A DNA stretch of 64,000 bases from Centroscyllium fabricii (Eukaryota), in NCBI GenBank assembly GCA_051313645.2, contig JBNRSN020000009.1, forward strand, positions 63,054,001 to 63,118,000, in the 5' to 3' direction. The notes beneath the pieces are model-generated. The model did not search any database, was not told the DNA's origin, and saw only the letters and a program-made list of their open reading frames with translations. The position numbers and the translations under genes are program-made. Below, piece after piece: positions 1,896-56,600 of this stretch (position 1 is the stretch's first letter; each line of letters begins with the position of its first letter).

Positions 1896-2385
1896 AGCTA
1901 TAGCTTTCATGTAGCTCCAGATTGTGTCGCCCTCACTGAGACCCATCCAAAGTGACAGTAGAGCAGTGTTGGCGTTGTCACCAAAGTAACAAAGCCTCGC
2001 AATCCATCGTGCATTTTGAGACATGTCAGTGTTGCCACCTACATTTGGCAACTGACTCCTCGGGTTAACGGATGATACTCCAGTAGGTGAAACTGGTGCA
2101 TAGAGTGGGTACTAAAGGCTCTCCTTAGAGGGAAGGATGGTGGATGCGTGAGATAGGTGTAGAGTGTTCAACACATTAAGACAGACTCAGGATTGTTGTG
2201 TGCTCAGCCATTGCTCGAGGCCTTGTTTAATCTCTCTCACTTCCTGTTAACCCTCTGTTGCCCCCTACTGGGCAGAGGGTAACTATCACTACATCTCCCT
2301 TTCTAAACATACTTTGAAAACTATTCCTTTACTGTTAACATTTTCAAATCATTACTTTTTTACAGTGCTTAAGAAATAATAAACT

Positions 2386-7294: not shown

Positions 7295-7467
7295 GATCGT
7301 AAGCTAAGCACCATGGGGTAAATACACTTTTTCTTTCTCTCTCTCAGTCTCTTTCGGTTTTCTCAGTTGTGGCTTAAACAGCTATTGTAAACTTTCACTC
7401 ATCGGGAGCTGACTGGTTTTACTGCGGAATTCAGTTCTATTGTGGGTTCAGATCGCAATTCTGACAC

Positions 7468-10400: not shown

Positions 10401-12068
10401 TGATGTGGAACTCGGCGCGCGCGATCTCCAGCTTGGCCGGGTCCAGCCTGCGTGCGTGGGCATGGACTGGGGGGCCTGTGGTGGTGATGTGATGCTCCAC
10501 CCCGTGCTTGGCCGTGCGGGCTGTGAAGGTGGGGTTGGTGAGGGCTGGGAACTCCGCGAGCAGCGTGGCGTACGTGTCGGAGTTCCGTGCTCGGCAGTGG
10601 GACGCCGCGTGGGTCTGGTGTGCCGGGCCTGTGGAGCATGGGATGGTCGACATGTTGTGGATGTCGACCAGGCGGCGCCGGGTAACGTTGACCAGTAGGC
10701 CGTGGGCGCAGAGAAAGTCGGCCCCGAGTAGGGGTATTTTGACTTGGACTGTGATAAAGTCCCACTTGTACATGTGGCCTGCTAGCTTGATGGTAAGCTG
10801 GCGGGTGCCGAACGTAACTATCTCGGAGCCGTTTGCGGCTTCAAGTGGTGGGCCTTGGTTGCCTTGCTTGGTTTCTGTGGGGGAGGCTGGCACGATGCTG
10901 TGCTGCGCGCCTGTGTCGCAGAGGAAGCGGAGGCCTGAGCCACTGTCCGTGACGAAGAGCAGTGCTCCAGAGCGGCCTACTGACATGGTGGGGCTTGGGC
11001 TGGTTTGGGGTTTGAAGGTGCAGGGCTGGACGCAGCGCTGCGCTTTAGCTTCAAACCTGGTGTGATAGTAGCACCAGCCGGGGCCTGTGGTGCGTGGCTT
11101 TTTGTGGGTCCGCACCGGTCTGGGTTGGGACCTGGGGCCGGGCCTGGGGTGCGCGTAGTACTGCTCCGGTGGAGCGGCAGTGGGTTGGCACGTGGCGGCT
11201 CGGGTGCGCTCGGCCCTCATCAGCTTGTCGGCCTCATGAGCCAGTTGCTCCTTGGTGTAGTGCTCAAGGACCGTCAGAGCCGGTCTGACGGAGGGGGGCA
11301 GTTTAAGGAGGAACAAGGCGCGCTTGATGGTGGCCGGGTCGCAATTAAGCGCTTCAAATTGGGCCCAAAGGTCCGATGGATCTGCGTCCCCGAGGTCGGG
11401 GAGGTTAATGAGCTGGCAGTTGCGCTCAAATTGGGTGGGGGTAAATTTTTCTAGCAGCGCGACCTTAAGCGTTTCGTACCTGCCAGCAGTTGGTTCTTGC
11501 TGGATTGATGCCCACATTCGGTCGAGCGTGGGCTGCGAAAGGGTCGCGAAGAGCAGGCTGTAGCGATCGTCCCCCTGCACGCCATAGATGCGGTCGGTGT
11601 TCTCCGTGTTGAGGAACCAGGCCGCTGGACGGAGTTCCCAGAACTCAGGTAAGTTTGGGATTTGGCCGTAGTTCTGGCCCCGTCTGTGGTGGCGTGCTGT
11701 TTCGATCCCTGCTGGCATGGTGGTTGCGATTCAACTGAAGCAGCTTGGCCCTCAGTCCTGCAGCGACTGCTTCATTGTTCCCTTGGAATTCGTTCCAAGT
11801 ATCGAGGTCACCACTGTAGAGGCATGCAGGCCTGAAGAACCACACTGGACACAGAAGATTCGGAAAGTTATCATTTAATACTAACACAGCTATGGCCAGG
11901 TAGCGAAAGAGAGTGAGCCACCTGGAACCAGGGTATTTAAAGGTCCCGCGGTTGGTGACATCACTGCCGGGTGTCCACCTGGCGACGTCATCATGCCGCC
12001 CGGCGGGCGGGGCCGTCTCGCAGCACTCCCGAGGCGGATTCGATGGTTCTGGTGGGCGTGTCGCCACA
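7468..12068 (-). mobile_element. CsRn1-clade Gypsy LTR retrotransposon nested in the PBS of the 2158-12210 element
   Basis: LTRs 7468-7747 and 11815-12068 (~6 substitutions plus a 26-bp indel); 4-bp TSD ACAC; PBS TGGTGACCTCGA (tRNA-Trp-like); G-rich PPT; CHCC-type Gag motif. Confidence 0.92.
7894..11718 (-). pseudogene. gag-pol of the CsRn1-like element, broken by frameshifts and a stop
   Basis: [18 protein letters not shown]; [11 protein letters not shown]; [17 protein letters not shown]; RH TDASDRAVGA; IN HPGVRAS..CNAC, HIDLVGP, GPY module. Confidence 0.9.
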
Positions 12069-12248
12069 ACACCATGTAGAGTGTTCAACACATTAAGACA
12101 GACTCAGGATTGTTGTGTGCTCAGCCTTTGCTCGAGGCCTTGTTTAATCTCTCTCACTTCCTATTAACCCTCTGTTGCCCCCTACTGGGCAGAGGGTAAC
12201 TATCACTACAATGGGGATCCATTTTAGGGGAAGCCAGTGTGCCCAGTA

Positions 12249-26228: not shown

Positions 26229-28194
26229 CCCTCCCGACTTGTTGTTTTGGGTGGAGTTAAAGTGGCATACAGCGGTAAATATTGGGAATGTGGCGTGAAC
26301 CCTGCTCCACCCGCGCCCACCCCCCACCCCTCTGCTCTGTGAACAACCCGCCCGCCCTGTTCACCCTGGCCTGGCCGGGTTACAATCCAGGCTCAACAGT
26401 CTGCAGATGACGATGTAAATCTTTTATCTCATTAAACTTTAGAGAGATTATTTCAAATGACATTCAGTAAGACTGGCTCCATTGTGGTTTTGTTTTTATT
26501 TTGTCTATTATATCCCCTTAAGGCAACTTTAAGCTTGAAGTATTCAAAGCTGCTCTTTTTAAATCACTATCACTATCAGACAAATTGTTCCACTATTTTG
26601 GGTCTGCCAAAGACTGTTTCAAACAATAGGAAATAAATGTTGTCTTTTGTTCTGTGCATCAGCAAGAATGGCCATATTAATAGTGATATTTGCAGCTAAA
26701 TATATGTTATTTAGCAGCATAATGCAGAATTATATTACTGCTTTAGAGCAATAGAAAGGAATGACCACACAGGATGCTGAGAGTTAGAGGTAATTCCATC
26801 CAGCTGTGAGATCTTCAAAAAGTATCTATCTACCAATTAGAGACAATGATCTTCAGAGCGTTCTTTTTAATGCTTCTCCTTTGTAAACATTGCACCTTCA
26901 AGAAGAAACTGAAGCCCATACCTTGCTGTAAGACATTAAAGGAGATTTCTGTGTCCCTGCCCACTTTCTTGTTGCAAAGAACAGGAATTCTGGCATGCTG
27001 AAAGACGGGGAAATAAACAGAAGATGAAAATGAATTGCAAGACTTTGGGGAAAGGCCAGCATATCAACTTTAGTTCTTTATTATTGGTCCTTGGCCAGAC
27101 TTGCCCACACTGATTGGCTTCCCAATAGTTCAGCTGGTTTATCCAATAACTAGCTAAGTTATACAGACACAAAGGCCGGAATTTTGCCAGCGCTCAGAGT
27201 GCGGGTTTGGAGGCGGGACCACTGTCAAAATGGCAAAGATTGACAGTGGGTAGGAAACCTGCTGTCAACCCACCTCCAATCAATCTTCCCAAGTGTCAGG
27301 TCCCCGATTTGCGCATGGACCTGAATCCTAGTGGCGGGAAGAGGATTCTAGCCACTCACCTGCCTGTTAATAGGTAGTGGATAGTAGTTGACAGGCTCTT
27401 TTTTCAATTTTGCTGCTTCTGCCTTGGGTTTCCCGACATCTGGACACCACGCCAGGTAAGTTTGGTGTGTTATGAGTCTGCTGTAATGTTTCTGCTTTGA
27501 TGGCAGCTGCAGAAATGGTGTGAGGGATCCAATGGTGCACTGATGAGTTTCAGAGGTAAGAAAATGTTGGGAAAATCATTTTTAATCCATTTACACTTTT
27601 CTGTAGGTAACAAGTTTTGAATTGGCTGTCTAGACCCACCTCATTGGGAAAACCTCTCTCACCAGTGACAGATTGCTTCTGTCACCTCATCTGCAGCTGC
27701 CATCTGTTCCAGCCTATGGAGGGAGTCATTAGAGAGCCTGGGTGCAAGAGCTCACCTTTGTACAGTGATTGTCAATGTTTGCAGTACTTCAATGCTGTCA
27801 AACACTGAGAAATGATATGTCAAAGTAAAATTGTACGTGGTCCCTTTAAGAAAACTGGCAGATGATGCGTCTGTGATAAACCACTGTTTCTCACTGTTCT
27901 TGTTGTATATACTTACTCTGCCTGTATCGATGTAATCGGACCTAATACCATGTTGTACATAAACCTGTTATGCGATTACCGGGACACACCCAGGTCGGCT
28001 CTGCCCACGATTCCTCCCTCCCTGGAGAGGGTACATAAGTGGCCGTCTCCCATCCCCCGGCCTTACCTGGGGACAGTCGACTAGCTGGTGTATGTCCCAC
28101 CGTTTAGTTAATAAAAACCGCATTGTTTCTCCTTCTAACTACTCGTCCATGAGGTTGTTATTTCGGTCACAATTTTATTAACTAAATTTTGAAG

Positions 28195-30311
28195 ATGGAT
28201 ACCATGCTCAAGCCAGCGACGTTTGAACTGGACCCCCGAACACCAGGTGCATCAAACACTTTTACACACTGGTACAGTGTTTTCGATGCGTACCTGAGAG
28301 CGAACGCAGCGGTCGTCGTGACCGAAGAGGACAAACGACGGCTCCTCAACGCCCGGGTGGGCCCTCAGGTGTACTCCATGATAGTGGAAGCATCATCATA
28401 CTTGGATGCTATCAGGATCCTCAAAGCGGAGTACAACCGGGCACCCAATATCGTCCACGCCAGACATCTCCTAGCCACCAGGAAGCAGCAACCCGGTGAG
28501 TCCAGTGTGGAATTTTTAAGAGCGCTGAGAGTGCTTTCACGGGCCTGTGACTGCAGAGCGCTAACGGCCCCGATCCATGCGGACAGTCTCATTAGAGACG
28601 CATATGTGACAGGCCTCAGGTCGGACCTCCAGGCAAATACGGATCTGGGACACGCGCTGGACGTGGCCTCGCTAAATCTCTCATCTTACTCCGGCAACTA
28701 TATGGGCCCAGCCCCGCCATCTTGGACAACGGCGGCGCAACGGCCGGTGGAAGAGATGATCGCAGCCGCTCACGTGAAGACGGCTAAATGCTACTTCTGC
28801 GGGCAGGCTCAGCATCCGAGACGTAACTGCCCGGCAAGAGAAGCGGCCTGCACGAAATGTGGAACAAAAGGACATTACGCCAAAGTCTGTAAGGCGACCA
28901 CATCAGCCCCTAAACCGAAACTGGGCAGCGCCGCGTGTGGAACATGGGAGCAGCCATATTGGACTCAACCATCCCCCACTCAGTTCCCCGCATGGCAGCA
29001 GTCACCATATTGGACCCAGCCACCCCCTCCGCAGTACACCGCATGGTGGCAGCCATCTTGGGGACCGGCCCCGGAGGACTACTCTGCGGATCAAGAGGAA
29101 TCAGCTGACCCAATCTTAGCATCAGTAACTCTTGACCAGAACAAGACCCATTCACTGGGGAAATCGACGATGCCTGTGGAAGTGAACGGACAAGAAGTGG
29201 TGTGTCTCTTCGACAGTGGGAGCACGGTGAGTTTTATTCATCCCGAAACAGTAGAGCGCCTCTCCCTTAAGGTTATACCTGCGAGCCAAAGAATTTCGAT
29301 GGCTTCTAAATCGGAATCTGCGGACGTCTCCGGGCGTTGCGCAGTGGCCCTAACTGTACAGGGCGCGCAATTTGATAATTTTAGTTTTTTCGTGCTGTCG
29401 CAGCTCTGCGCTCCATTACTATTGGGTCTGGACTTCCAGTGCCATCTCCAAAGCGTTACCATGGCGTACGGTGGGCCCCTTCCCTCGCTCACGGTCAGCA
29501 ACTGGCGCTCAGCGCAGCACCACCGGCGCGCTACCTGTGGCCTCTCGACCCTTAAGGTCGCCACTCCCTCGCTCTTCGCCAACCTCACCTCAGACTGCAA
29601 GCCCTTCGCCACCAAGAGTAGGTGCTACAGTGCTGGGGACATGGACTTTATTAAGTCCGAGGTGCAGCGCCTACTGAATGAGGGGGTGATCGAGGCCAGT
29701 AATAGCCCCTGGAGGGCGCAGGTAGTGGTGGTCAAAACCGGAGCAAAGAACCGGATGGTCGTTGACTACAGTCAGACCATAAACCGGTTCACCCAGTTAG
29801 ATGCCTACCCCCTTCCCCGGATAGCGTGCATGGTGAACCAGATCGCACAGTTCAGGGTGTTCTCTACCATCGATCTCAAGTCCGCTTATCACCAGCTTCC
29901 CATCCGCCCAGAGGACTGTCTCTATACAGCCTTCGAGGCTGACGGTCGCCTCTACCACTTCCTTAAGGTCCCGTTTGGCATCACGAATGGGGTCTCGGTC
30001 TTCAAAAGGGAGATGGACCGAATGGTCGATCGGTACGGACTGCAAGCCACTTTCCCGTACCTCGATAACGTGACCATCTGCGGCCATGATCAGCAGGACC
30101 ATGACGCCAACCACCAGAAATTTCTCCACACCGCCAAAACACTTAATTTGACCTATAACACCGAAAAGTGCGTGTTCAGTACCACCCGCCTGGCCATCCT
30201 CAGCAGTGTTGTGGAGAATGGGGTCATCAGTCCCGACCCGGACCGCATGCGCCCCCTCATGGAGCTCCCCCTCCCCCACTCCCCCAAGGCCCTTAAACGG
30301 TGCTTGGGTTT
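28195..30311 (+). CDS. Single-frame gag-PR-RT (5' part of polyprotein); in-frame ~13-aa gag deletion relative to its relative
   Basis: CYFCGQAQH..C, CTKCGTKGH..C; LFDSGST; IDLKSAYHQ; YLDN; frame continues (CLG|FFAYY) after the nested insertion. Confidence 0.9.
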
Positions 30312-33300
30312 TGTGACCTTCAATAACGTCCACGGAGTCGTGTAGTTGATAAGAAACAATCAGGCTTTTATTGACTACAATAGGAATGCACAACAGCAAG
30401 CTGACTGTCCCCTAGAATGGCATGGGGGATGGGGACAGTCACTTAAGTACTCCCTCCAGCGGGGGAGGAGTCGTGGGCGGAGCCAGGTATGTTCCAGGTA
30501 ACAGGTATACAGTGATATAAGTGATATACAGTTTATCACATTCACCCCTTCTTTAAGAACTAAAATACAGCGGGGTGAAAAACTAACAATTACAAGTTTG
30601 ATCAAAAAAAAATATATATACAACCGCAGTTCTTATAATTACAAATTTAATCTATCAGGCGGTTTCATTATCCGCGTTGATCTTCGCACCGCTGGTGGTG
30701 CCTGTGGTGTTCGTGGTCGTGGAGCGGCTGGTTGTGTCAGTTGCTCCATTGATGCCGGTCGACTGGTGGTGGTTGTTGAATTATTTCTGTGTGGCGGTGG
30801 TGCCCTTATTCTGACAGCAGGGGGCGCCTTCTCTCCTTCGTCCTCTGACTCTAGGGGGCGCGCGCTGTGGATCCAAGCTTGGGGCGAGGTCGTGCTGCTC
30901 GCAGGTGCCTTGTGAACATACTGGGGTACTGGGGCCACGTGTCGGGGCGGGTACTTCGGCTTCGGCAGCATGGGGTGCATCACAGGACATTTTGGGTGCG
31001 CGACCTGCTGGGCGGGGCTTCTTGGGAGCTCGGGCTGCCTGGCGGGGCTGGGTTTTGGGACTCCTGCTGGGGCTAGGTCCTTTATAGACACGGTGTCCTC
31101 CCTCCCATCGGGGAACGCTATATAAGCGTACTGGGGGTTGGCGTGCAGGAGGTGGACCCGTTCGACTAGGGGATCTGCCTTGTGTCCCCTCACATGCTTC
31201 CGGAGCAGGACCGGTCCCGGAGATAGTAGCCACGATGGTAGCGAGGTCCCGGAAGCTGACTTCCTGGGGAAGGCAAGAAGTATTTCGTGAGGGGTGGCAT
31301 TGGTGGCAGTACACAGGAGGGACCGGATAGAGTGGAGTGCTTCAGGGAGAACGTCCTGCCATCGGGTGACTGGGAGGTTTTTAGACCGTAGGGCTAACTG
31401 GATGGCTTTCCAGACCGTGGCGTTCTCTCTCTCTACCTGTCCGTTCCCCCGGGGGTTGTAGCTGGTAGTCCTGCTAGTCGCGATGCCTTTCGCTAGCAGA
31501 AACTGACGCAGCTCGTCGCTCATAAAAGAGGCCCCCCGGTCACTATGGATATAGTTAGGGTACCCGAACAGGGTGAAAATGCTATTGAGAGCCTTGATGA
31601 CGGTGGTGGAGGTCATGTCCTGGCAGGGAATAGCGAAGGGGAAGCGGGAGTACTCATCTATTACGTTAAGGAAGTACACATTCCTGTTAGATGAGGGAAG
31701 GGGCCCTTTAAAGTCGACACTGAGTCGTTCAAAGGGGCGAGTGGCCTTGATCAAGTGCGCCCGGTCTGGCCGGTAGAAGTGCGGCTTGCACTCTGCGCAG
31801 ACCTGGCAGTTGCTGGTCATGGTCTTGACCTCCTCGATGGAGTAGGGGAGGTTGCGGGACTTCACAAAGTGAACCAACCTGGTGACCCCCGGGTGGCAGA
31901 GGTCATTGTGGAGAGTTTGGAGACGGTCAGCCTGTGCGCTGGCACAGGTACCGCGGGATAGGGCATCTGGGGGTTCGTTAAATATCCCGGGCCGGTACAA
32001 GATATCATAATTGAACGCAGATAGTTCAATTCTCCACCTTAATATCTTGTCGTTCTTTATTTTACCCCGTTCTTTGTTATTAAACATGAATGCGACTGAT
32101 CGTTGGTCAGTCAACAGGGTAAAACGCTTGCCGGCCAGGTAGTGCTTCCAGTGCCGCACTGCTTCAACAATGGCCTGGGCCTCCTTTTCGACTGAGGAAT
32201 GGCGGGTTTCGGGGCCTTGGAGGGTACGTGAAAAGAAGGCCACGGGTCTGCCCGCCTGGTTGAGGGTGGCGGCCAGGGCAAAGTCCGATGCATCACTCTC
32301 CACTTGGAATGGGACGGACTCATCCACAGCGTGCATCGTGGCTTTGGCAATATCGTTTTTAATTCTGCAGAACGCCGAGTTGGCTTCTGCAGAAAGGGGA
32401 AAAGAGGTCGATTTAAGTAGTGGGCGAGCTTTGTCCGCATAATTGGGGACCCACTGGGCATAATAGGCAAAGAATCCCAAACTCCGTTTAAGAGATTTGG
32501 GGGAGTGGGGGAGGGGAAGCTCCATGAGGGGACGCATGCGGTCCGGGTCTGGACCGATGACTCCATTCTCCACCACGCTGCCGAGGATGGCTAGGCGGGT
32601 GGTGTTAAACACACATTTCTCCTTGTTATATGTTAGGTTCAGAGTTTTGGCCGTAAGGAGAAATTTTTGGAGGTTATCGTTATGGTCCTGCTGATCATGG
32701 CCGCAGATGGTCACATTATCAAGATACGGGAATGTCGCTCGCAGCCCGTACCGATCAACCATTCGGTCCATCTCCCTCTGGAAGACCGAGACCCCGTTTG
32801 TGACGCCAAACGGAACCCTAAGGAAGTGGTAGAGGCGACCGTCAGCCTCAAAAGCTGTATAAGGACGGTCCTCTGGGCGGATGGGAAGCTGGTGATAAGC
32901 AGATTTTAAATCGATTGTGGAGTACACTTTAAATTGTGCGATTTGGTTCACCATGTCCGCTATCCGGGGGAGAGGGTAGGCATCTAGTTGGGTGAACCGG
33001 TTTATGGTCTGGCTGTAATCCACCACCATCCTATTCTTCTCTCCGGTTTTTACTACCACTACCTGTGCTCTCCAGGGGCTATTACTGGCCTCTATGACCC
33101 CCTCTTTTAGGAGGCGCTGCACCTCAGATTTTATAAATATCATGTCCTCAGCACTGTAGCGCCTACTTTTGGTGGTGACGGGCTTACAGTCTGGGGTGAG
33201 GTTCGCAAATAGAGATGGAGGGGCAACCTTAAGGGTTGAGAGGCCACAGGTAGTGTACTGGGGGTACCGCCTTGAGCCGCGGTTCCTGACCGTGAGTGAG

Positions 33301-34875
33301 GGAAGGGGTCCGCCGAATGCCATAGTAACGCTCCAAAGATGGCACTGAAAATCCAGTCCCAGGAGTAGGGGGCGCAGAGCTGCGGCAGCACGTAAAAACT
33401 AAGATCCTTAAAGATAGCGCCCTGTACATTAAGCATTACAGTACAGCGCCCTGTAACGTCAGCGGATTCTGACTTTGATGCCATAGATATTCTCTGGCGC
33501 GCAGGGATTACTTTAAGGGAGAGGCGCTTTACAGTATTTGGGTGAACAAAACTTACTGTGCTCCCACTGTCGAACAGGCACACCACCTCTTCATCATTGA
33601 CTTCCACCGGCATCATTGATTTCTCCAGTGGTTGAATCTTCCTCTGGTCTAGGCTCATCGATGCTAGCACAGGGTCCTCGGAGTTATCTTGATCCGGAGA
33701 GTAGTCCTCCAAGTCTGCTCCCCAAGATGGCTGCTGCCATGTGTTGGGCTGTGGAGGTTGATGCTGAGTACAAAATGGCCGCTGTAGCTGCTGCCATGAG
33801 GGCTGCTGAGTGGGGGATGGGTGAGCCCAATGTGGCTGCTCCCCTGTTCCACACGCAGCGCTGCCCAGTTTAGATTTAAAGTTAGAGTTTTTACAGACCT
33901 TTGCATAATGTCCCTTTTTGTCGCATTTTGAACAGGTCGCTTCTCTGGCAGGGCAGCTGCGTCTTGAATGTTGAGGTTGCCCACAGAAGTAGCATCTAGC
34001 TTTAGCGTGGGCAGCTGTGAGTAGTTCTTCTGCCGGTCGTTGCACCGGCGTTGTCCAAGATTGCGGGGCTGGGCCCGTATAATTACTTGAGTATGAGGAT
34101 AAGTCCATTGACGCGCTATCCAGCACGTGTCCCAAGTCTGTGGTTGCCTGTAAATCCTGGCCGTTCTGCTCCAGCAGTCTCTGTCTGGCATAGTCCGATT
34201 TTAGACCAGTTACGTAGGCGTCTCTGATGAGGCTCTCCATATGAACTTGAGCCGTTTGCGCTTTGCAATCACAGTCCCGAGCCAGAGTTCTGAGGGCTCT
34301 TAGGAACTGCACACTTGATTCGTTGTTCTGTTGCTTTCTAGTAGCAAGTATGTGTCTCGCATGGACTATGTTCGGTGCCCGCTTATATTCCGCCTCGAGG
34401 AGTCTGATGGCCTCTTGGAACGAAGGGGCGTCCACTGTCATTGAGTACACTTGAGGGCCCACTCGGGCGTTGAAGAGTCGCCGTTTTTGCTCCTCGGTCA
34501 CTATGACCGCCGCGTTGGCTCTGATGTACCCTTCGAGTACGTTTCTCCAGTGTGAGAAGGCGTTTGCTGCTCCTGAAGATCGGGGGTCAACTTCAAACAC
34601 TGATGGTTTAAGCATTGCAGTATCCATTTCCAGTAGTCAATAAAATTGTGACCTTCAATAACGTCCACGGAGTCGTGTAGTTGATAAGAAACAATCAGGC
34701 TTTTATTGACTACAATAGGAATGCACAACAGCAAGCTGACTGTCCCCTAGAATGGCATGGGAGATGGGGACAGTGACTTAAGTACTCCCTCCAGCGGGGG
34801 AGGAGTCGTGGGCGGAGCCAGGTATGTTCCAGGTAACAGGTATACAGTGATATAAGTGATATACAGTTTATCACA
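30312..34875 (-). mobile_element. Young full-length YLDN-lineage Gypsy element nested antisense in the host RT
   Basis: 229-bp LTRs 30312-30540 and 34647-34875 (2 differences); perfect TSD GGTTT; PPT AAGAAGGGGTGAA. Confidence 0.95.
30639..34627 (-). CDS. gag-pol of the nested element; one apparent 1-nt frameshift near 33368-33372
   Basis: ORFs 33140-34627 and 30639-33323 join if one C is added to a C-run (LCAP-LLLG in relatives). Confidence 0.88.
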
Positions 34876-34880
34876 GGTTT

Positions 34881-36711
34881 CTTTGCATATTACGCCCAGT
34901 GGGTCCCCAATTACGCGGACAAAGCTCGCCCACTGCTTAAATCTACCTCTTTTCCCCTGTCTGCAGAAGCCAGCTCGGTGGTCTGCGGCATTAAGAATGA
35001 CATCGCAAAAGCCACGATGCACGCTGTGGACGAGTCCGTCCCATTTCAAGTAGAGAGCGATGCATCGGACTTTGCCCTGGCCGCCACCCTTAACCAGGCG
35101 GGCAGACCCGTGGCCTTCTTCTCACGTACCCTCCAGGGCCCCGAGACCCGCCACTCCTCAGTCGAGAAGGAGGCCCAGGCCATCGTTGAAGCAGTGCGTC
35201 ACTGGAAGCACTACCTGGCCGGCAAGCGTTTTACTCTGTTGACTGACCAACGATCAGTCGCTTTTATGTTCAACAACAAAGAGCGGGGTAAAATCAAGAA
35301 CGACAAGATATTGAGGTGGAGAATTGAACTCTCCGCGTTTAATTATGATATCTTGTACCAGCCCGGGAAATTTAACGAACCCCCAGACGCCCTATCCCGC
35401 GGTACCTGTGCCAGCGCACAGACAGACCGCCTCCAAACCCTTCACAATGACCTCTGCCACCCGGGGGTCACCAGGTTGGTTCACTTCGTGAAGTCCCGCA
35501 ACCTCCCCTACTCTATCGAAGAGGTCAAGACCCTGACCAGCAACTGCCAGGTCTGCGCGGAGTGCAAGCCGCACTTCTACCGGCCAGACCGGGCGCATTT
35601 GATTAAGGCCACTCGCCCCTTTGAACGACTCAGCGTCGATTTCAAAGGGCCCCTTCCCTCCTCCAACAGGAATGTGTACTTCCTTAATGTGATCGATGAG
35701 TACTCCCGCTTCCCCTTTGCCATCCCCTGCCCGGACATGACCTGCGCCACGGTCATCAAAGCCCTTCACAGTATCTTCTCCCTGTTCGGCTACCCCAACT
35801 ATATTCATAGTGACCGGGGGGCCTCTTTTATGAGTGACGAACTGCGTCAGTTTCTGCTAGCCAAAGGCATCGCGACTAGCAGAACTACCAGCTACAACCC
35901 CCGGGGGAACGGGCAGGTTGAGAGGGAGAACGCCACTGTCTGGAAGGCCATCCTGTTAGCCCTAAGGTCTAAAAACCTCCCAGTCTCCCGATGGCAGGAC
36001 GTCCTCCCTGAAGCGCTCCACTCTATCCGGTCCCTCCTGTGTACTGCCACTAATGCCACCCCTCACGAACGACTTTTTGCCTTCCCCAGGAAGTCGGCTT
36101 CCGGGACCTCGCTACCATCGTGGCTGCTATCCCCGGGACCGGTCTTACTACGGAAGCACGTGAGGGGCCACAAGGCAGATCCCCTGGTCGAACGGGTCCA
36201 CCTCCTGCACGCCAATCCCCAGTACGCCTACGTGGCGTACCCCGACGGGAGGGAGGACACAGTGTCCATCAAGAACCTGGCACCAGCGGGAGTCCCCAAA
36301 CCCAGCCCCGCCCAGCAGCCCGCGCACCCAAGAAGCCCCGCCCAGCAGCCAGCGCACCCAAGACGCCCAGTCACGCCACCCCAGCCACCGGTGCCAAGGT
36401 ACGCTCCCCGGCACGTGGACCCAGTACTCCAGTATGCCCACCCGGCACCTGCGAGCAGCACGGCATGGCCTCCAGCATGGCTCCACAGCGCACGCCCCCT
36501 AGAGTCAGACGACGAGGGAGAGAGCGCGCCTCCTACTGTCAGTATAAGGGCACCACCACCACCCAGAAACCAACCGACGACCACCGCTCGCCAACCAGCA
36601 TCAGCACCATCGCTACAACCAACTCGGCCGGCCACTCCGCGTCCGCGGACACCACCAGCGGTGCGATGCTCGACAAGGGTCACCAGACCGCCGGAGCGAC
36701 TTAATTTATAA
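34881..36711 (+). CDS. RT end, RNase H and integrase (3' part of the same polyprotein)
   Basis: ESDASDFAL; HNDLCHPG..CQVC; VDFKGP, HSDRGASF, NGQVERE; Pro-rich tail; no stops. Confidence 0.9.
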
Positions 36712-38798
36712 ATAAAAGAACTGTTCCTTTCACACCACCGGACTTTTGTTTTAAAGAAGGGGTGAATGTGATAAACCACTGTTTCTCACTGTTCTTGTTG
36801 TATATACTTACTCTGCCTGTATCGATGTAATCGGACCTAATGCCATGTTGTACATAAACCTGTTATGCGATTACCGGGACACACCCAGGTCGGCTCCGCC
36901 CATGACTCCTCCCTCCCTGGAGAGGGTACATAAGTGGCCGTCTCCCATCCCCCGGCCTTACCTGGGGACAGTCGACTAGCTGGTGTATGTCCCACCGTTT
37001 AGTTAATAAAAACCGCATTGTTTCCCCTTCTAACTACTCGTCCACGAGGTCGTTATTTCGGTCACAGCGTCATCAAATGACGTCATCTGACCGGCTTCCT
37101 CTTAATTGGCCGGCAAGCCCACAGGGCAGTCCTAACATGGCCAATCAAGGGAAAATCACGTCCATGGGCTGGATGCAGTTGGGGGTGGGATTGGAACCTG
37201 GAAACCACCTGACCCGTTCCCTAGCCGCATCCGATGACAAAATCGCGGCAACAGGGCTCTATTTTAATAGCCCTGAGGAGGTGGGTCTGGAGGCGGGTTA
37301 GCTGCGAAAATCAGAAAAAATGGCTTCAGACACCCAACCCACCTCCATCCCGCCCCCATGCGATTTTCATGAGTGTCGGGTCAGCCACTCCCAAACTGAC
37401 CCGACTCCAACTGGTGGGACAAGTAGTTAAGGCAGTTAAGAGTCTGTTAACTGCCTTGCTAATCCTATTTTGATAGACGTTTTCCATTTTCGGGCCTCTG
37501 TCTTCTGTTTCCTGTCTTGTCAGAACAGTCCAGCTGCAAGGAGATGAGTTTCTCGAGGGCATGATCTGTAGTCATTATTGGTGCAGAACTTTAAAAGCGC
37601 TCCTGTAACATGGCTGGCATTCAAATGCATCAACGTTGTTGTTGTTGGTTTGGGATAAGATTTTGCAAATCTACTGACCTTGTGACTGGTGAAGCTGACA
37701 CACATCTGCTGTTTGAACTAATTGGAATAATTTCAGGCCACATTGAGTGTGCACTGGCAAGCTTCTTGCCTCAACTGAAATCTATAACAACGGGATGGGA
37801 ACCATTTCCATCCTCTCATCCTGGTCGTCAGATTCGGAGGAAGAGCAGCGGGGCTTAGTGCTGCCGGATGAACAAGTGGCTCAGCCCACAGCCTCCTTGG
37901 AGGAAGATGAAGAGGATGAGGAGGATAAGGAGGAGGATGGGGAGTGATGCCTTGTGGGGCTGGGTGTGGCCAATTCAGCAGCAGGCGGCCACATTGATGG
38001 CCGTCATCCATGCCAGATTCACGTAAGCTAACGCTTCAACCACAGGTGGTTGGCACATGGAGATGAATATACGTCCGACAGTCTCAAAGCCCAGGCATCA
38101 TCTGTCCAATAAACGGTGGTTTGCGCTCAGTGTCACCACCATCATTCAACATGGAAATCACCCTGAGCCCTCACTCTTGAACTTCCATGTCCCAGAACAC
38201 AGAGGCCACACTTTAGGTGATCGCAGCAGATCATTAAACCTTTTTTGACACTAAACCCATGTGCATCTGCACACAGACCTCGAGCTCACCTCCTCAGCAA
38301 TTTGCAGCCAAGCTGCTTTGGTTTGCTGAGGAGGCTGCCTCCCTCCTTTTCCAGGGAAAAGGAGATCCTGAAGTCCTCTAACTCCCTCTACAAGAGCATG
38401 GAGGGAGCCCTCATTGAACCTGGGTGCAACCTTAGTTTTTGGGAGCTGCCATTCCTGCATCTCCCAGCACTTTTAAGAGAAAAAAGCATTAATATTACTG
38501 AAGTATCGTCAATATCTTCAGATTAAAAGACTCAACGAGTAGTTACCGTAACTATAGGCTTTTAATCACTTACTTAGGAGCTACCCTCCGAACGAACATC
38601 TAAGCAGGAATGAGGGAGCCTCAGTCAGTCTCCACCTATAAAGGCCTCACCTGGGGGAGGAGTTAGAGGTGTGGCTGACCTGGCTCCCGACAGCATTACA
38701 AGGCTGTGTATCACATATACACAGCCAATTATTGGCAACAAGAATGCAGTGGTATACATAACATTATGGGTTACCACATTCACCCCTTCTTGAAAATT

Positions 38799-41700
38799 TT
38801 AAGTCCGGGGGGGGAGTGAATGGACCGAGCAGTTCAATATCAGCCTATCCAGTGGTCGTGCCAGCCTGGAGGACCGCCGGAGTTCCGGTGATGATCGCTC
38901 ATGATCCGTGCTGTTCGAGTCCGCTGGTGGCGACAGTTGCCCTGGTGCCATGGTTTCGGGTGGTGATGGTCTCCGCTGGTCCGAGCTATCGGAGTGGTGG
39001 TCCTGGGTTGGCCACTGCTGGGGCTCTGGGAAACTCGGAGGCCATTGTAGGTGTAGGGGGTGTTCTGGGTACTGTAGCTGAGTGGCCTGCTGACCGACCC
39101 GGGGCTCTGTGGTGCTTCCTGCGGGCGCCAGGTCCCTGATGGATACGGTGTCCTCACGCCCGTCCGGGAACTGCACGAATGCGTATTGCGGGTTCGCATG
39201 CAGGAGCTGCACCTTGTCCACCAGGGGGTCAGTCTTGTGGCCTCAGACGTGTCTTCTAAGGAAGACCGGCCCCGGTGTCGTCAGCCATGGCGGAAGAGCT
39301 GTCCCCGAAGTTGACTTCCTGGGAAAAGCAAAAATCAAATCATGAGGAGTTGCGTTAGTGGCCGTACATAGGAGAGAGCGTATAGAGTGCAGCGCGTCTG
39401 GGAGGACTGCCTGCCAATGGGCCACTGGAAGGCCTCTGGACTTCAGAGCCAGGGTGACCGCCTTCCAGATGATCCCATTCTCCCTTTCTACCTGGCCGTT
39501 CCCCCGGGGGTTATAACTGGTTGTTCTGCTCGTGGCAACCCCTTTCTGGAGCAGAAACTGACGCAGTTCATCGCTCATGAACGATGACCCCCGGTCGCTA
39601 TGGATGTAGCTGGAGAGACCGAAAATGGCGAACAGCGTGGTGAAGTGTTTTATCACCGTTGCGCTCGTCATATCTGCGCAGGGGAAGGCGAAGGGGAAGC
39701 GGGAGAACTCATCTACGACCGTGAGGAAGTATGAGTTGCGGTCGGTGGTGGGGAGGGGGCCTTTGAAGTCCATGCTGAGACGTTCAAAGGGGCGGGTGGC
39801 CTTGATGAGGTGCACCATGTCTGGCCGGAAAAATTGGGGTTTGCACTCGGCGCAAACAAGGCACTCTCGGGTCATAGCCTTGATCTCCGTGATGGAGTAG
39901 GGGAGGCTACGGGATCTGACGAAGTGGGCGAGTCTGGTGACACCCGGGTGGCAAAGGCGGTCGTGGAGGTCCTTCAGCCGGTCGAGCTGGGCACTGGCGC
40001 ACGTTCCCCTGGACAGTGCGTCCGGGGGTTCATTGAGTTTGCCTGGTCGGTAAAGAATGTCATACTCGTAAGTCGAGAGCTCGATCCGCCACCGCAGGAT
40101 CTTATCATTCTTGATCTTACCCTTCTGTTTATTATTAAACATAAACGCCACCGACCGTTGGTCGGTGAGAAGGGTAAAACGCTTACCGGCCAGGTAATGA
40201 CGCCAGTAGCGCACGGCCTCCACGATGGCCTGGGCCTCCTTTTCCACTGCTGAGTGGCGAGTTTCGGGTCCCTGTAGGGTGCGGGAGAAAAACGCTACGG
40301 GCCTGCCTGCCTGATTCAGGGTGGCAGCAAGGGCGAAGTCCGAAGCGTCGCTCTCCACCTGGAAGGGAATGGATTCATCAACAGCGAGCATGGTCGCCTT
40401 GATGATGTCTTCCTTTATCCGGGCGAATGCCATTTGGGCTTCTACCGAAAGGGGGAAAACGGCAGCCTTGAGCAGTGGTCTAGCCTTGTCTGCGAACTGT
40501 GGGACCCATTGTGCGTAGTAGGAGAAAAATCCTAGGCATCTCCTCAAGGCTTTAGGGTTGTGAGGTAGGGGCAGTTCTTGAAGGGGTCGCATACGCTGTG
40601 GGTCGGGGCCGAGGACCCCGTTCTCCACCACGTATCCGAGGATGGCGAGCCGGTCTGTATTAAAGACACATTTGTCTTTGTTATACGTGAGGTCCAGCTT
40701 ATCCGCCGTGTCGAGAAATTTGGCCAGATTGGCATCGTGGTCCTGCTGGTCGTGGCCGCAGATGATCACGTTGTCCAGGTAGGGGAAGGTGGCCTGCAAC
40801 TCGTTCTGGTCAACCATGTGGTCCATCTCCCGCTGGAACACTGACACTCCGTTGGTCACGCCGAAGGGGACCCGGAGGAAGTGGTAGAGCCGACCGTTCG
40901 CCTCGAAGACGGTGTAACGGCGGTCGGCTTTCCGGATCGGGAGTTGGTGATACGCTGACTTAAGGTCGATCGTGGAGAACACCTTGTACTGGGCGATCTG
41001 ATTGACCATTTCCGAGATGCGGGGAAGTGGGTAGGTGTCGAGCCCGGTGTAGCGGTTGATGGTCTGGCTGTAATCGATCACCAGCCGTTGTTTCTTGCCA
41101 GACTTTACCACTACAACCTGGGCGCGCCAGGGGCTGGTGCTGGCTTCAATTATCCCCTCCTTCAGCATACGCCCGACCTCCGACCTGATAAACGTGCGAT
41201 CCCCCACACTGTACCGCCGACTCTTGGTAGCAATAGGTTTGCACTTGGGGTCGAGGTTGGCGAACAGTGAGGGGGAGTCGATTTTCAGGGTGGAGAGGCC
41301 GCAGGCCGGGCTCCGCTTTGGGAAGGGACTGTCCCGGCTACTGACGGTGAGGGGGGGCAAGGTCCCGCCGAACTCCATTGTCACGCTCTTGAGGTGGCAC
41401 TGGAAATCCAGACCTAGTAAGGCTGGGGCGCACAACTGCTGGAGGGTGTACAATTTAAAATTACGGTACACGCACCCCTTGACTGTGAACGTGACGGAGC
41501 AGTAGCCGGTGACGTCCGCGGTGTGAGACTTTGAAGCAAGGGAGACTTGGTAGTTTGTGGGCAGGATCTGCAGTCCGCAGCGCTGCACTGTATCGGGGTG
41601 CACAAAGCTCTCCGTGCTTCCAGTGTCAAATAGGCAATTAGTAGTATAGCCGTTTATTTTGATGGGCATTATTGAGTTAGACAGGGTGTGTGGCCTGTCC

Positions 41701-43073
41701 TGGTCCACTCTGGGTATGGCTGAAGCAGACGTGTGCTTCTGTGTGTGTGGGCCCCCTGCTGGTTGGGGCTGTATATAAAATGGCGGCGCCCCTGGCTCGC
41801 ACATGGTGGGGCCCTGTAGACAAAATGGCGGCGCCCCTGGCTCGCACATGGTGGGGCCCTGGGGACAAAATGGCGGCGCCGAGGGGTCGCACATGGTGGG
41901 CCGCTGGGGGCGAGATGGCGGCGCCCGTGGTTCGCACGCGGCTGACCGCTGTGAGCGCGCTGGCGGCGCCTGTGGTTCGCACGCAGCGGGCCGCGGTGAC
42001 TGGGTTTGCGGCGCCCGTGGTTCGCACGCAGCGGGCCGCGGTGGTCGGGTTGGCGGTGCCCGTGGTTCGCACGCAGCAAGCCGCGGTGGTCGGGTTGGCG
42101 GTGCCCGTGATTCGCACGCAGCCGGCCGCATTGGGTCTGCTGCTGGCGTTGGGGGGTCGCGCTTGGCCGGCCTTTGCCGCCTCGGGGTGGGAGATGGAGG
42201 CGCTTTCCTCCTACCCCCGGACCGTCGCTGGATCGCGCTGCTATTGCAGCTTACCTGAGGTCTGTCGCTTTCACAGGCTGCGCTGTTGTACCTGGAGTTG
42301 GGCGCTGCTGGTGCTGATCTGCAAGCCTTTGCATAATGTCCCTTCTTGGCGCACCTCTCACAGGTCGCAGTCCTTGCTGGGCATCTCGCTCTCGGGTGCA
42401 GTCCCTGGCTGCAGAAGTAGCAGCGTTTGTCTTTTGTGGCTGTCGCAGCAATCGTGGGGGTCTCGACCCGTTGTGGTGCTGCCCAGGCCTGGGCCCGTTG
42501 TGGCGCGGCCCACATGTCGTAGGCCTGCGGGTTTGTGCCGCTGTAAGCTTGCAGTTTGTTGCACGCTCCTTCCACGGAGTTAGATATAGCAATCGCGTCT
42601 TCGAGGGACAAAGTGTCTTTTTCGAGCAGCCGCTGGCGGGCCTCCACGCACCTTAGTCCAGTTACATACGCGTCTCGGACGAGGAGGTTCACCTCCTCTT
42701 CTGCTGTCCTGGCTTAGCAGCCACAGACCCGTACCAGGGCCTGGAGCGCTTGCTCAAATTGTTCATTAGTCTCACCCGGTAGTTGTGGTCTGGTCGCGAG
42801 CACATGTCTGGCGTAGACCGAATGGACCGGGCGCTCGTAGCATTTCCTCAGCTTTTCCACTGCCCCTGGGTAGGTTTTGGCGTCTCGGATGAGGGAGAAT
42901 ACTCGGCTGGAGATCCTGGACTGGAGAACCTTTAGCTTGTTCCCATCGGTTGTAGCCTTGGCGGCGTCCATATAGGCCTCCAGGAGACCGAACCAGTGTT
43001 CGAACGTGGTGGCGGCGGCAGGGTCCTGTGGACTGATATCCAGCTTTTCTGGCTTTACTGCACCGCTCTCCAT
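38799..43073 (-). pseudogene. Single-frame gag-pol with two in-frame nonsense changes (~42714 TAA, ~39243 TGA)
   Basis: ORFs 42714-43073, 39243-42692 and 38799-39221 share one frame; all domains present; YLDN at 40770-40781. Confidence 0.9.
41770..42135 (-). repeat. 45-bp coding tandem repeat (RPAACEPRAPPTRPP / TMCEPGAPPFC) between Gag NC and PR
   Basis: About 8 visible units; homologous array at 55125-55390. Confidence 0.85.
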
Positions 43074-43498
43074 TTAAAAACTTTAAGTGATTAAAATTGA
43101 CGTATCGTCAATATCTTCAGATTAAAAGACTCAACGAGTAGTTACCGTAACTATAGGCTTTTAATCACTTACTTAGGAGCTACCCTCCGAACGAACATCT
43201 AAGCAGGAATGAGGGAGCCTCAGTCAGTCTCCACCTATAAAGGCCTCACCTGGGGGAGGAGTTAGAGGTGTGGCTGACCTGGCTCCCGACAGCATTACAG
43301 GGCTGTGTATCACATATACACAGCCAATATTGGCAACAAGAATGCAGTGGTATACATAACATTATGGGTTACCACAATTACTAAGCAAATGATTGGAACA
43401 AATCTAGCATCTTTTTCATTTCATAGTCAGATAATAAAATCATATATCAAAAAATCATGAATCTCTTTCTGGAATAATATGACCAGCAATATCATTTA

Positions 43499-44325
43499 TA
43501 AGAACATAAGAACTAGGAGCAGAAATAGGCCACTTGGCCCCTCGAGCCTGCTCCGCCATTCAATAAGATCATGGCTGATCTCGGGCTCAAAGCAACTTCC
43601 CCACCCGCTCCCCATAACCCTTCACTCCCTTATCTTGCAAAAATCTGTCTATCTCCACCTCAAATGTATTTAATGACCCAGCCTCCACAATTCTCTGAGG
43701 CAGAGAATTACACAGATTTACGACCCTCTGAGAGAAGAAATTCCTCCTCATCAGTTCTAAAAAGGTGACCCTTTATTCTAAAACTGTGTCCCCGCATTCT
43801 AGATTTCCCCACGAGGTGAAACATCCTCTCTGCATCTATCCTGTCGAGCACCCTCAGTATCTTACATGTTTCAATAAGATCGGCTCTCATTCTTCTAAAT
43901 TCCAATGAGTGTAGGCCCAGCCTGCTCAACCTTTCCTCATAAGTCAACCCCCTCATCTCTGGAATTAGCCCAGTGAATCGTCTCTCAACTGTCTTCAATG
44001 CAAGTATATCCTTCCTTAAATAAGGAGACCAAAACTGTACGCAGTACTCAAGGTGTGGTCTCACCAATACCCTGTACAGTTGTAGCAGGCCTTCCCTGTT
44101 TTTATACTCCAACCCCTTTGAAATAAAGGCCAACATTCAATTTGCCTTTTTGATTACTTGCTGTACCTGCATGCTAACTTTTTGTATTTCATGCACAAGG
44201 ATCCCCAGATCCCTCTGAACTGTAGCATTTTGTAATCACTCACCATTTAAATAATAATTTGCTTTATTATTTTTCCTAGCAAAATGTATAACCTTGCACT
44301 TTCCCACATTATACTCCATTCATTA
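43499..44325 (-). mobile_element. CR1 LINE 3' fragment
   Basis: LYRVLVRPHLEYCVQFWSP..LEFRRMRADLIET; tail ATAAGAACATAAGAA. Confidence 0.85.
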
Positions 44326-47402: not shown

Positions 47403-47681
47403 TGTTACCGAATTAACGACCTCAGAGACGAGTTATTAAGAGGTGAAAACTATAGGCTTTTATTAGCTAAAGGTGGACATGCACCAGCTAGTCGACCGTC
47501 CCCAGGAATGGCTGGGGGAAGGGAGACGGCCGCTTATATACCTGGTCCTGGGAGGGAGGAGTCGCAGGCAGGGCCAGCATGGGCATGTCCAGGTGATCGC
47601 ATACAGAGAACTATAATACAACATAGTGAAAAGGCGATTACAACAATATATACATATATATACAAAGAGTGGTTTACCACA
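47403..47681 (-). mobile_element. Solo Gypsy LTR related to 3-259
   Basis: Shares TAGGCTTTTATTAGCTAAAG and GTGGTTTACCACA; TSD not clean. Confidence 0.75.
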
Positions 47682-53695: not shown

Positions 53696-56600
53696 ATGGG
53701 AGCCATTTATTTCCTTCCCATCTGGCCATTAGAGGAGCTCGAGCACCAGGCGTGGCACCAGCAGAACCAGGAACAACAGCAGCACAAACATCAGCAGCAG
53801 CAGGAGCGCCAGGCTGCTGCTCATCCACCTGAAGCTGCACAGGCCAGAAGGGGCCAGCGCCTGGAAGTCCGTCGGCGCAGGATATACGCCCCAAACAGGG
53901 TCTACAGACGCAGAGTCAGCTACCTCAACATGTCTGAGCAGCAGTGCCAAAGGCGGCTCCGACTTTCGCGACAGGTAGTGACTGACATCTGTGCAATGCT
54001 ACAGCAAGACCTGCAGCCCAGAGGACCAGGTGAACAAGCATTACCAGTGGCCATCAAAGTCAGCACCACACTCAACTTTTTTGCCTCAGGCTCATTCCAG
54101 GCATCAGCAGCAGACATCCTCGGCATCTCCCAGGCGGCCACACTGTGGTAATCGTATTACCATTTGTATATAGTTGTTGTATAGATACTGTGTGTAAGGC
54201 CAGGTCAGCCACACCTCTAACTCCTCCCCTCAGGTGGGAGCTTATAGGTAAGGTCTGCCCTGCCCCCAGTTATTCTGTGCCTGATGTTCGACTGGAGACT
54301 AGCTCCGTCTTTAAGCCGACTTAAGGTCGATTGTTGAAAAGACCTTATACTGGGCGATCTGATTAACCATATCCGAGATGCGGGGAAGGGGGTAGGCGTC
54401 GAGCCCGGTGTAGCGGTTAATCGTCTGGCTGTAGTCAATGACCATGCGCAGTTTCTCGCCGGTCTTAACCACTATGACCTGGGTCCACCAGGGGCTGGTG
54501 CTGGCCTCAATTATCGCCTCTTGCAGCATACGCCCGACTTCCGACCTGATAAATGCCCGGTCCCCCGCACTGTAACGCCGACTCTTGGTAGCAATAGGTT
54601 TGCAGTTGGGGTCGAGGTTGGCGAACAGCAAGGGGGGTCGACTTTCAGGGTGGATAGGCCGCAAGTCGGGCTCCGCTTTAAGAAGCGATTGTCCCGGCTA
54701 CTGACGGTGAGGGGGGCCAGGGTCCCGCCGAACTCCATTGTCACGCTCTTCAGGTGGCACTGGAAATCCAGTCCCAGTAAGACTGGGGCGCACAACCGCT
54801 GGAGAATGTACAGCTTGAAATTGCGGTACACGCAGTCCCTGACCGTGAGCGTGACGGAGCAGTAGCCGGTGACGTCCGCCGTGTGGGACTTTGAGGCAAG
54901 GGAGATTTGGTAGTGCGTGGGCTGGGTCCGCAGTGCGTAGCGCCACACTGTGTCGGGGTCGATGAAGCTCTCTGTGCTTCCGGTGTCGAACAGGCAGTTG
55001 GTAATGTGCCCGTCCACTTTAATCCCCATCATAGAATTTGATAGGGTGTGCGGCCTAGCCTGGTCGACAATGGCTGAGGCTGAAGTGTGTGTGTGTGTGT
55101 AGGGGCCCTCCGCTAGCTGGGGCCGTGCACAAGATGGCGGCGCCCGTGATTCGCATGCGGCTGACCGCGGTGGACAAGATGGCGGCGCCAGGGAGTCGCA
55201 CATGGCTGGCCGCTGAGAACAAGATGGCGGCGCCCGTGATTCGCACGCGGTGGACCGCGGTGGGCGAGGTGGCAGCGCCCGTGATTTGCACACGGCTGAC
55301 CGCGGTGGATGAGATGGCGGTGCCCATGATTCGCATGCAGCAGACCGCGCTGGGCAAGATGGTGGCGCCGGGGGGGTCGCACATGGCCGGCCGCTGTCAC
55401 CTCTGGGGTGGCGGCACCTGTGCCGCGCGCGCGGCCGGCCTCTGCCGTACAGATTTGGGGGACTGAAGCGCCCGCGATTTACCCCCGGACCGCTGCTGGG
55501 TCGCGCTGCAACATTTTACCTTGGGCCATGGGATGGCGTTGGAGCTCTCGCAGGCCGCGCTGTTGGGTCTGGAGCTGGACGCTGGGGCCGACTTGCAGGC
55601 TCTGGCTTAGTGTCCCTTTTTGCTGCATCGCTCACAGGTCGCGCTCCTCGCGGGGCACTGCGCTCGCGGGTGCTGTCCCTGGCCGCAGAAGTAGCATTTT
55701 CGCTCCGCCGGCGTCTTCGCAGCTGCCGCTGCCACTGTGAGGTTCTCAGCCTGTCGTGGTGGTGCCCAGGGATCGAGGGTATCATGTGGGCCTTGGCCGC
55801 CATATGGCTCTAGCTTGCGGCGCGCTCCGTCCACCGCATTTGAAATCGAGATCGTCTCTTCCAGCGACAGAGTGTCTTTTTCCAGCAGCCGCTGGCGGGC
55901 CTGGCTGGACCTGATTTCAGCCACGTATGCGTCCCGTACGAGGAGATTCGTCTCCTCCTGCGCCGTTCGTGGCTGGCAGTCGCAGGCCCGTGCGAGGGCT
56001 TGAAGCGCCAAAAGGAATTGTTCATTCGACTCACCGAGTCGCTGTTGTCTGGTCGCCAGGACGTTTCTAGAATAGACCGAGTGGACCGGGCGCAAGTAGC
56101 AGTCCTTCAATTTTTTCACTGCCTCCGTGTACGTCATGAGGCCGTGGATGAAGGAGTACACCCGGCTGCTGATTCTTGACGAGAGGACCTGCAGTTTGTC
56201 CCCGTCGCTCGTTGCCTTTGCGGCCTTCATATAGGCCTCGACTAGGCCCAACCAATGTTCGAAAACGTTAGCAGCTTCTGGTTCTTGTCGATTTATATCC
56301 AATCTGTCCGGTTTCACTGCGTTACTTTCCATTTAAAATAAAGTTAATAAAATTGACGTATCGTCAATAATACGAAAGACGAGTAGTTACCTTAACTACA
56401 GGCTTTTATTAACTTTAAGATGGAGCTAGTCTCCAGTCGAACACAAGGTGAGAATGAATGGGGGCAGTGCAGACCTTACCTATAAGCTCCCACCTGAGGG
56501 GAGGAGTTAGAGGTGTGGCTGACCTGGCCTTACACACAGTATCTATACAACAACTATATACAAATGGTAATACGATTACCACACATACACACTTGTATCA

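Follow-up and report, generated by a model that had tools for sequence, protein, structure and literature searches.

A poly(A)-type LTR word and its complement at the primer-binding position suggest self-priming in a chromodomain-less clade of Ty3/Gypsy retrotransposons

How does a long terminal repeat (LTR) that carries ATTAAA where related LTRs carry AATAAA come to stand beside a primer-binding position with exactly the matching letters? The question is raised by a short segment of the 64,000-nucleotide stretch of Centroscyllium fabricii DNA that we analyzed (the window), for which a reading made from the sequence alone had proposed a single compensatory change within the poly(A) hexamer, held by a dual constraint to remain a functional signal and to remain paired, and had offered as an alternative that the primer-binding site is copied anew from the primer in each cycle. 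Our analysis suggests that in the element concerned, E1, and in its relatives, this LTR segment (the box) is likely to act as a self-primer in place of a tRNA site, and that the matched changes are likely to have arisen through recopying.

The segment in question is the 5′ LTR and leader of E1, a minus-strand Ty3/Gypsy LTR retrotransposon (Table 1). E1 has TG...CA LTRs, a polypurine tract, a 5-bp target duplication (ATTAC), and the PR-RT-RNase H-integrase order of pol that is typical of Ty3/Gypsy, and the best match of its reverse transcriptase (RT) among solved relatives is the Ty3 RT (E 1.5e-49). The two LTRs align with 277 identities, 2 mismatches, and 1 gap over 280 columns. Although they differ at merely 3 of these 280 columns, the copy is broken by two stops, which interrupt gag at codon 120 and the tail of the integrase; its gag terminates in a 45-nt tandem repeat region. 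Among the matches listed by the protein search, the nearest proteins come from catshark and rays (about 80% over RT-RNase H), and relatives at about 60% occur in sea anemone, mussel, nematode, and insects. A scan of viral contigs found no relatives, no tRNA genes were found in the 64-kb window, and positions 42900-43500 had no Rfam match. Three genomes filed as bacterial (G001, G002, and G003) gave 170, 165, and 8 Gypsy polyprotein matches, many of them intact with LTRs, which are likely to be animal DNA in those assemblies.

Table 1. Positions of E1, its putative priming signals, and related elements in the window
Feature	Position	Strand	Details	Basis
E1 5′ LTR	43376-43098	minus	TG...CA, 279 bp	pairwise identity to 3′ LTR, target duplication
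E1 3′ LTR	38778-38499	minus	same ATTAAA box (38572-38560)	LTR comparison
E1 polypurine tract	38779-38791	minus	ahead of 3′ LTR	
E1 gag-pol	38811-43073	minus	PR, RT, RNase H, integrase; no chromodomain	
E1 putative self-primer box	43171-43159	minus	TAAGTGATTAAAA; 11-nt core 43169-43159; ATTAAA 43165-43160	
E1 primer-binding position	43096-43084	minus	TTTTAATCACTTA; 1 nt past LTR-terminal CA; no TGG	
E1 predicted start motifs	43208-43241	minus	TATA-like motif 43241-43234 and Initiator-like TCATTC 43212-43207, 29 nt apart	motif match, predicted
Small hairpin inside loop	43153-43139	minus	6-bp stem, 3-nt loop	predicted fold only
U5-end hairpin	43097-43111	minus	stacked beside primer site in E1 and E2	predicted fold
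Related element E2	56339-56417	minus	AATAAA-type box 56417-56404, 14 bp with site 56352-56339	
Related element A	28103-28186	plus	AATAAA-type box 28103-28116, 14 bp with site 28173-28186	
Related element B, nested in A	34633-34713	minus	box 34713-34701, 13 bp with site 34645-34633	
Solo LTR, sister subfamily	536-812	minus	AATAAA-type box 605-595; no leader	flanks match 4/5

The ATTAAA that the sequence-only reading had noticed is present in both E1 LTRs, each of which contains the box TAAGTGATTAAAA, and the altered sequence that it reported at the primer position is there as well: the terminal CA is followed by one spacer A (43097), and next in the leader stands TTTTAATCACTTA, a perfect 13-bp complement of TAAGTGATTAAAA. 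The solo LTR with which E1 had been compared does have AATAAA (its box is AGTTAATAAAA) but is the wrong partner, because it belongs to a different subfamily, 83% identical to the E1 LTR, and is leaderless; the proper comparison is E2, which has both an AATAAA box and a site. In E2 (56583-54312), the box AAGTTAATAAAA stands opposite the site TTTTATTAACTT, and relative to E1 two box positions differ and both partner positions in the site differ in step. The matched change is therefore real, but E1 and E2 are separated by two such changes instead of one. Elements A and B, like E2, combine an AATAAA box with its own matching site (Table 1), and a solo-like LTR at 47403-47648, 78% related to element A, has the box variant AGCTAATAAAA. 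The small hairpin that had been described within the loop exists in E1 and recurs in E2 at 56399-56383, but not with the proposed 7-bp arms, which would leave a 1-nt loop; one of its pairs is broken in the solo LTR, and the hairpin as such is not a feature of the whole clade. In contigs from four sequencing runs, variants over 42960-43400 include AATAAA-type letters at 43164 and 43166 in all four; among the variants listed, the partner positions 43091 and 43089 have none, and the site variants at 43085 and 43088 are without listed partners.

Several elements of the window have a complex history. E2 (54144-56583 in full) breaks off after about 2 kb, and its end is formed by an inverted U3 copy of its own (54144-54315, 94% alike), which stops at the 5′ edge of the box; the outer flanks match at four of five positions, resembling a target duplication, and the whole is possibly an aberrant cDNA that was inserted as one piece. 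B lies inside A (27872-37066) with a 5-bp duplication, and in a second nested pair (2158-12210), a tRNA-primed element (7465-12068) sits inside the primer site of another tRNA-primed element.

In the E1 clade, the box pairs with a site at a fixed position one nucleotide past the CA, this arrangement is spread across the clade, TGG is absent, and the letters of box and site change in step. The survey query was an alignment of 47 polyproteins, which led to 87 loci, 7 of them from genomes and 80 from metagenomes, the latter being the best of 504. We kept the 58 of these 87 loci that had a gag start and at least 60 nt upstream, excluded the remaining 29, and added the four window elements, for a set of 62 elements in which pairing had to start 1 nt past a CA. 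From this position, 46 of the 62 form 11 or more perfect pairs, mostly 13-14 bp and at most 19; among 2,480 dinucleotide shuffles, none got as far as 11 bp, and the longest pairing was 9. In the 29 elements whose LTR end was fixed independently by the repeat boundary, the site at this position pairs over at least 11 bp in 21. Many loci are copies from one assembly, and the counts that follow are therefore based on 28 distinct 11-nt boxes or on 33 families defined by box plus loop.

The families share a stereotyped architecture. The site starts with TTT in 31 of the 33 and with TGG in none, the spacer base is A in 31, and the bases following the box are GCC or ACC in 30, which gives it a sharp 3′ edge. 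Because the duplex extends to at least 13 bp in 30 of 33 families, a strict 11-nt primer was dropped as a description. A box from one family pairs perfectly with the site of another in just 10 of 1,056 combinations, a figure to be read in the knowledge that a box matching its own site was partly the criterion for picking the families; such combinations frequently match at 7-9 of 11 positions, the boxes being A/T-rich and having a consensus in common. In 21 of 33 families a stem begins directly after the box, against 19% of shuffles, whereas a U5-end stem of at least 4 bp (19 of 33 versus 51%) is not enriched. The leader is very short in all families, with the gag ATG about 16-33 nt past the LTR end and sometimes right after the primer site, so that the duplex abuts the start codon. 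A further family, outside the 62 elements counted, is represented by the 3′ end of locus L031, with the box AGTGGAATAAA and a matching site.

Gypsy elements from other clades behave differently. As controls we used 24 RT hits, 22 from two genomes and 2 from the window. The 19 with an LTR pair show pairing of 2-6 bp, and in 18 of them a TGG lies within 3 nt of the LTR end, the remaining one resembling a damaged TGG site. The E1 clade, unlike the tRNA-primed animal Gypsy clades (Gmr1-type, CsRn1-type, and Mag-type), has no TGG-starting site that matches a tRNA 3′ end. In a quick RT tree comprising 41 self-pairing and 21 control sequences, the self-pairing ones sit on one long stem with 100% SH-aLRT, a grouping that is partly by construction since they had been retrieved by likeness.

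Pairing is shorter than 11 bp in 16 of the 62 elements, and those read are mostly damaged copies with deletions or with single changes in the site or LTR end. Two of the exceptions, L005 and L019, have an unmatched site although they are young (LTRs more than 99% alike). In L069 and L078 the site has one base in common that would be expected to make a G-U pair with the box as read in L069, and no clear box was seen in L018, L028, L073, and L078. A copy with ATTAAA opposite TTTATT, or the reverse, which the sequence-only reading had named, if frequent in young copies, as evidence against itself, was sought among the metagenome and window elements with box and site read, and there was none.

These features suggest a route by which the two sequences could be kept matched. 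By analogy with Tf1, the RNA would fold the LTR box onto the primer site, the element's RNase H would cut just after the final AAA of the box, ahead of the conserved G/A-C-C, and the freed 3′ end would prime minus-strand DNA. Plus-strand synthesis would later copy the primer, and a mutation in the box would thereby pass to the site. In the standard LTR cycle, a single template supplies the box of both new LTRs and the primer is the source of the site, which means that a change in the box reaches the site one round later without a second mutation; a matched change then needs one mutation rather than two selected ones. Two single cases are instructive in this respect. L023 differs from near-identical siblings by one box base, changed in both LTRs, and by the matching site base, and in L012 both LTRs have a changed box while the site is unaltered, which would fit the intermediate that recopying predicts. 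In one family (L007, L008, L035, and L044), the duplex has 13 bp in three members and 19 bp in one, the difference lying at base 14 of the site, and this suggests that recopying usually does not reach that far. In Tf1, the first 11 RNA bases anneal to the site, with the RNase H cut falling between bases 11 and 12 (PMC7175516), and the primer is copied into the cDNA end, about half of the cDNA ends carrying the copied site (PMC11042837). Of the two explanations put forward in the sequence-only reading, recopying from the primer is thus the one that fits best, given pairing exactly at the primer position, a clade without a tRNA site, and a Tf1 primer that is copied into cDNA. It also means that "compensatory" changes in the primer site are no evidence of selection on an RNA helix, because copying alone yields them.

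The other explanation, a dual constraint on the hexamer, fared less uniformly. In its favor, 18 of the 28 boxes contain a canonical hexamer (AATAAA in 9 and ATTAAA in 9), while 7 are one change off and 3 are two off, compared with a mean of 2.0 and a maximum of 9 in 5,000 draws under a null that redraws five box positions from the composition of each LTR and ignores shared ancestry. Furthermore, A/T swaps at the tolerant position recur in sister families (E1 versus A and B, L081 versus L011 and L004, L041 versus L027), each with a matched site. Both observations, the first of them statistical, support a second constraint that would act on the box. Against it, the canonical hexamer is absent from 10 of 28 boxes, all of them still perfectly paired; of the 12 families without one in the box, 3 have one further downstream. 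Predicted folds place the hexamer in a fully paired state in the 5′ context of E1, A, and B (3/3). For the 3′ context, they leave it clearly exposed in A, partly so in E1, and unexposed in B. No poly(A)-tailed contigs near a box were found among the 87 loci. If the 3′ LTR copy of the box also works as a poly(A) signal, the RNA would be expected to end 15-25 nt past the cut point, and an end just beyond that point would leave a minimal short repeat for strand transfer, while the copy of the hexamer in the 5′ LTR would be hidden by its pairing with the site. According to a study of retroviruses, polyadenylation cleavage occurs about 15-23 nt past the hexamer, and those with the signal in R must occlude its 5′ copy (PMC12789967).

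For E1, motif matches predict that transcription likely starts near 43210, some 40 nt ahead of the box. In all four window families, 70-74 nt separate the box from a TATA-like motif upstream of it, so that in these elements the box may not coincide with the RNA 5′ end, unlike in Tf1. A search of the 33 families for a TATA box placed 30 nt before the box gave one case. However, most boxes start with AG(T/C) after T-rich bases and are thus Initiator-like, and on this reading the RNA would begin at the box, as it does in Tf1. Two transcript starts are possible; the Initiator motif is given as TCAKTY in PMC3601003, and alternative starts are in use in Tf2 (PMC5341516). In several invertebrate-type LTRs (L053, L060, L066, L068, and L082), a splice-acceptor-like pyrimidine tract ending in AG was noted, which precedes the box by a few to about 30 nt.

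Other explanations have to be weighed against cis self-priming with recopying. The primer might instead act in trans, coming from another copy of the box, either at the 3′ end of genomic RNA or in a 5′ LTR transcript that ended early, and being trimmed to the paired AAA. The hexamers found in 18 of 28 boxes would provide natural RNA 3′ ends nearby, and the TATA-like motif speaks against the box being the 5′ end in the window elements. However, since cleavage is described at about 15-23 nt past the hexamer (PMC12789967) and pairing stops at the hexamer's end, extra trimming would be required, and trimming of the 3′ repeat would presumably take away the homology for strand transfer; moreover, the conserved stem just after the box resembles a cis cut-site signal. 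We therefore consider a trans primer unlikely. Alternatively, the duplex might serve, as in HIV-1, to hide the 5′ poly(A) signal, with both sides under selection and some other primer in use. The enrichment of the hexamer in the boxes and its fully paired state in the predicted 5′ folds of E1, A, and B would suit such a role, for which retroviruses with the signal in R have a need (PMC12789967), but occlusion gives no account of the start one nucleotide past CA or the absence of a TGG site, the 10 boxes without a canonical hexamer are paired equally well, and the one-step matched change in L023 is more easily obtained by recopying, which together make it quite improbable.

A perfect Watson-Crick repeat would suit DNA as well as RNA, and the inverted repeat might therefore work at the DNA level, through fold-back of nascent cDNA or as an end structure for integrase, and not as an RNA primer. 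This would leave minus-strand initiation without any primer, and the position of the repeat is the same as that of the primer site in all controls; we regard a DNA-level role as very unlikely. Finally, a chance match of A/T-rich sequences, or inheritance of one ancestral repeat, might be suspected from the common consensus of the boxes and from cross-family matches that often reach 7-9 of 11, but it is refuted by the shuffles (0/2,480), by the cross-family comparison, with 28 different boxes that each have their own matching site, and by control elements that do not exceed 6 bp, and its probability is negligible. Cis self-priming with recopying is thus the reading that we prefer.

To our knowledge, self-priming has been demonstrated experimentally only in Tf1-type yeast elements and is treated as a hallmark of Tf1/sushi. 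A wider scenario, which we put forward tentatively and with considerable doubt, is that an animal-wide Gypsy lineage evolved self-priming independently of Tf1/sushi, with one word of 11-14 nt doing three jobs, those of a primer, of a 3′ poly(A) signal defining the strand-transfer repeat directly behind the cut, and of a 5′ switch hidden by the primer site, and that in sharks and rays the primer is cut from inside the transcript with a 40-nt capped tail. We know of no described self-primed element with an internally cut primer and such a tail. If the scenario is true, a large chromodomain-less lineage with relatives in cartilaginous fishes, a sea anemone, a mussel, a nematode, and insects would mean that priming without a tRNA was invented more than once in animals. 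Self-primed elements would also be expected to evade silencing by tRNA fragments directed at the primer site. In practice, LTR finders that require a tRNA match miss or mis-score elements of this clade.

The comparison with known systems places these elements close to Tf1 in sequence signature and apart from it in other respects. No description of priming in the E1 clade was found in full-text searches of the literature, subscription papers, Repbase Reports, and GyDB being beyond reach, and a mollusc survey, as far as its accessible text and supplements extend, offers no primer-site data, matching motif, or clade name. HIV-1 and MLV, with AAUAAA in R, resemble the E1 clade in having the hexamer at both ends with the 5′ one predicted to be hidden (PMC12789967), but they are tRNA-primed, whereas the hiding partner in the E1 clade would be the primer site, which is present only beside the 5′ LTR. 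Skipper from Dictyostelium has a pyrimidine-rich sequence in place of the TGG site, as in the E1 clade, but it has a chromodomain and no LTR complement, while the complement is perfect in the E1 clade (PMC5006619). For the plant TAR elements (Ty1/copia) and for Tcn1, self-priming was predicted on like sequence evidence, namely pairing of at least 10 bp starting 0-5 bp after the LTR; unlike the E1 clade, TAR belongs to another superfamily and to plants, Tcn1 is a chromovirus, and no overlap with a poly(A) signal is reported in the accessible text (PMC6317226).

The closest parallel is with Tf1 and Tf2 of Schizosaccharomyces pombe, Tj1, and the other Tf1/sushi chromoviruses, which, like the E1 clade, are Ty3/Gypsy elements without a tRNA site; their primer position is the complement of some 11 nt of the LTR, and an extra stem flanks the duplex (PMC7175516, PMC4600332, bioRxiv 2022.12.06.519325). 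The group is, however, defined there as chromoviruses with a three-duplex structure (bioRxiv 2022.12.06.519325), and the E1 clade differs on several counts. A chromodomain is absent from all 20 proteins (no Chromo or SH3_Tf2-1 match at E 0.01 in 19 relatives and the E1 integrase tail) and was not found among the precomputed domains of 120 protein matches. The clade's RT lies at a distance from Ty3 (172 bits, where a tRNA-primed control reaches 327), its duplex is mostly 13-14 bp and up to 19 instead of a fixed 11, its box overlaps a poly(A)-type hexamer, and in the window elements the box may, by prediction, lie about 40 nt inside the transcript. Of two stems compared with the three-duplex "pretzel" of Tf1, the stem after the box is enriched, and the U5-end stem is not conserved. 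The best reading is therefore that the E1 clade has the sequence signature of Tf1-like self-priming, and that it should nonetheless not be filed under Tf1/sushi because the chromodomain is absent, the RT is distant, and only one of the side stems is enriched.
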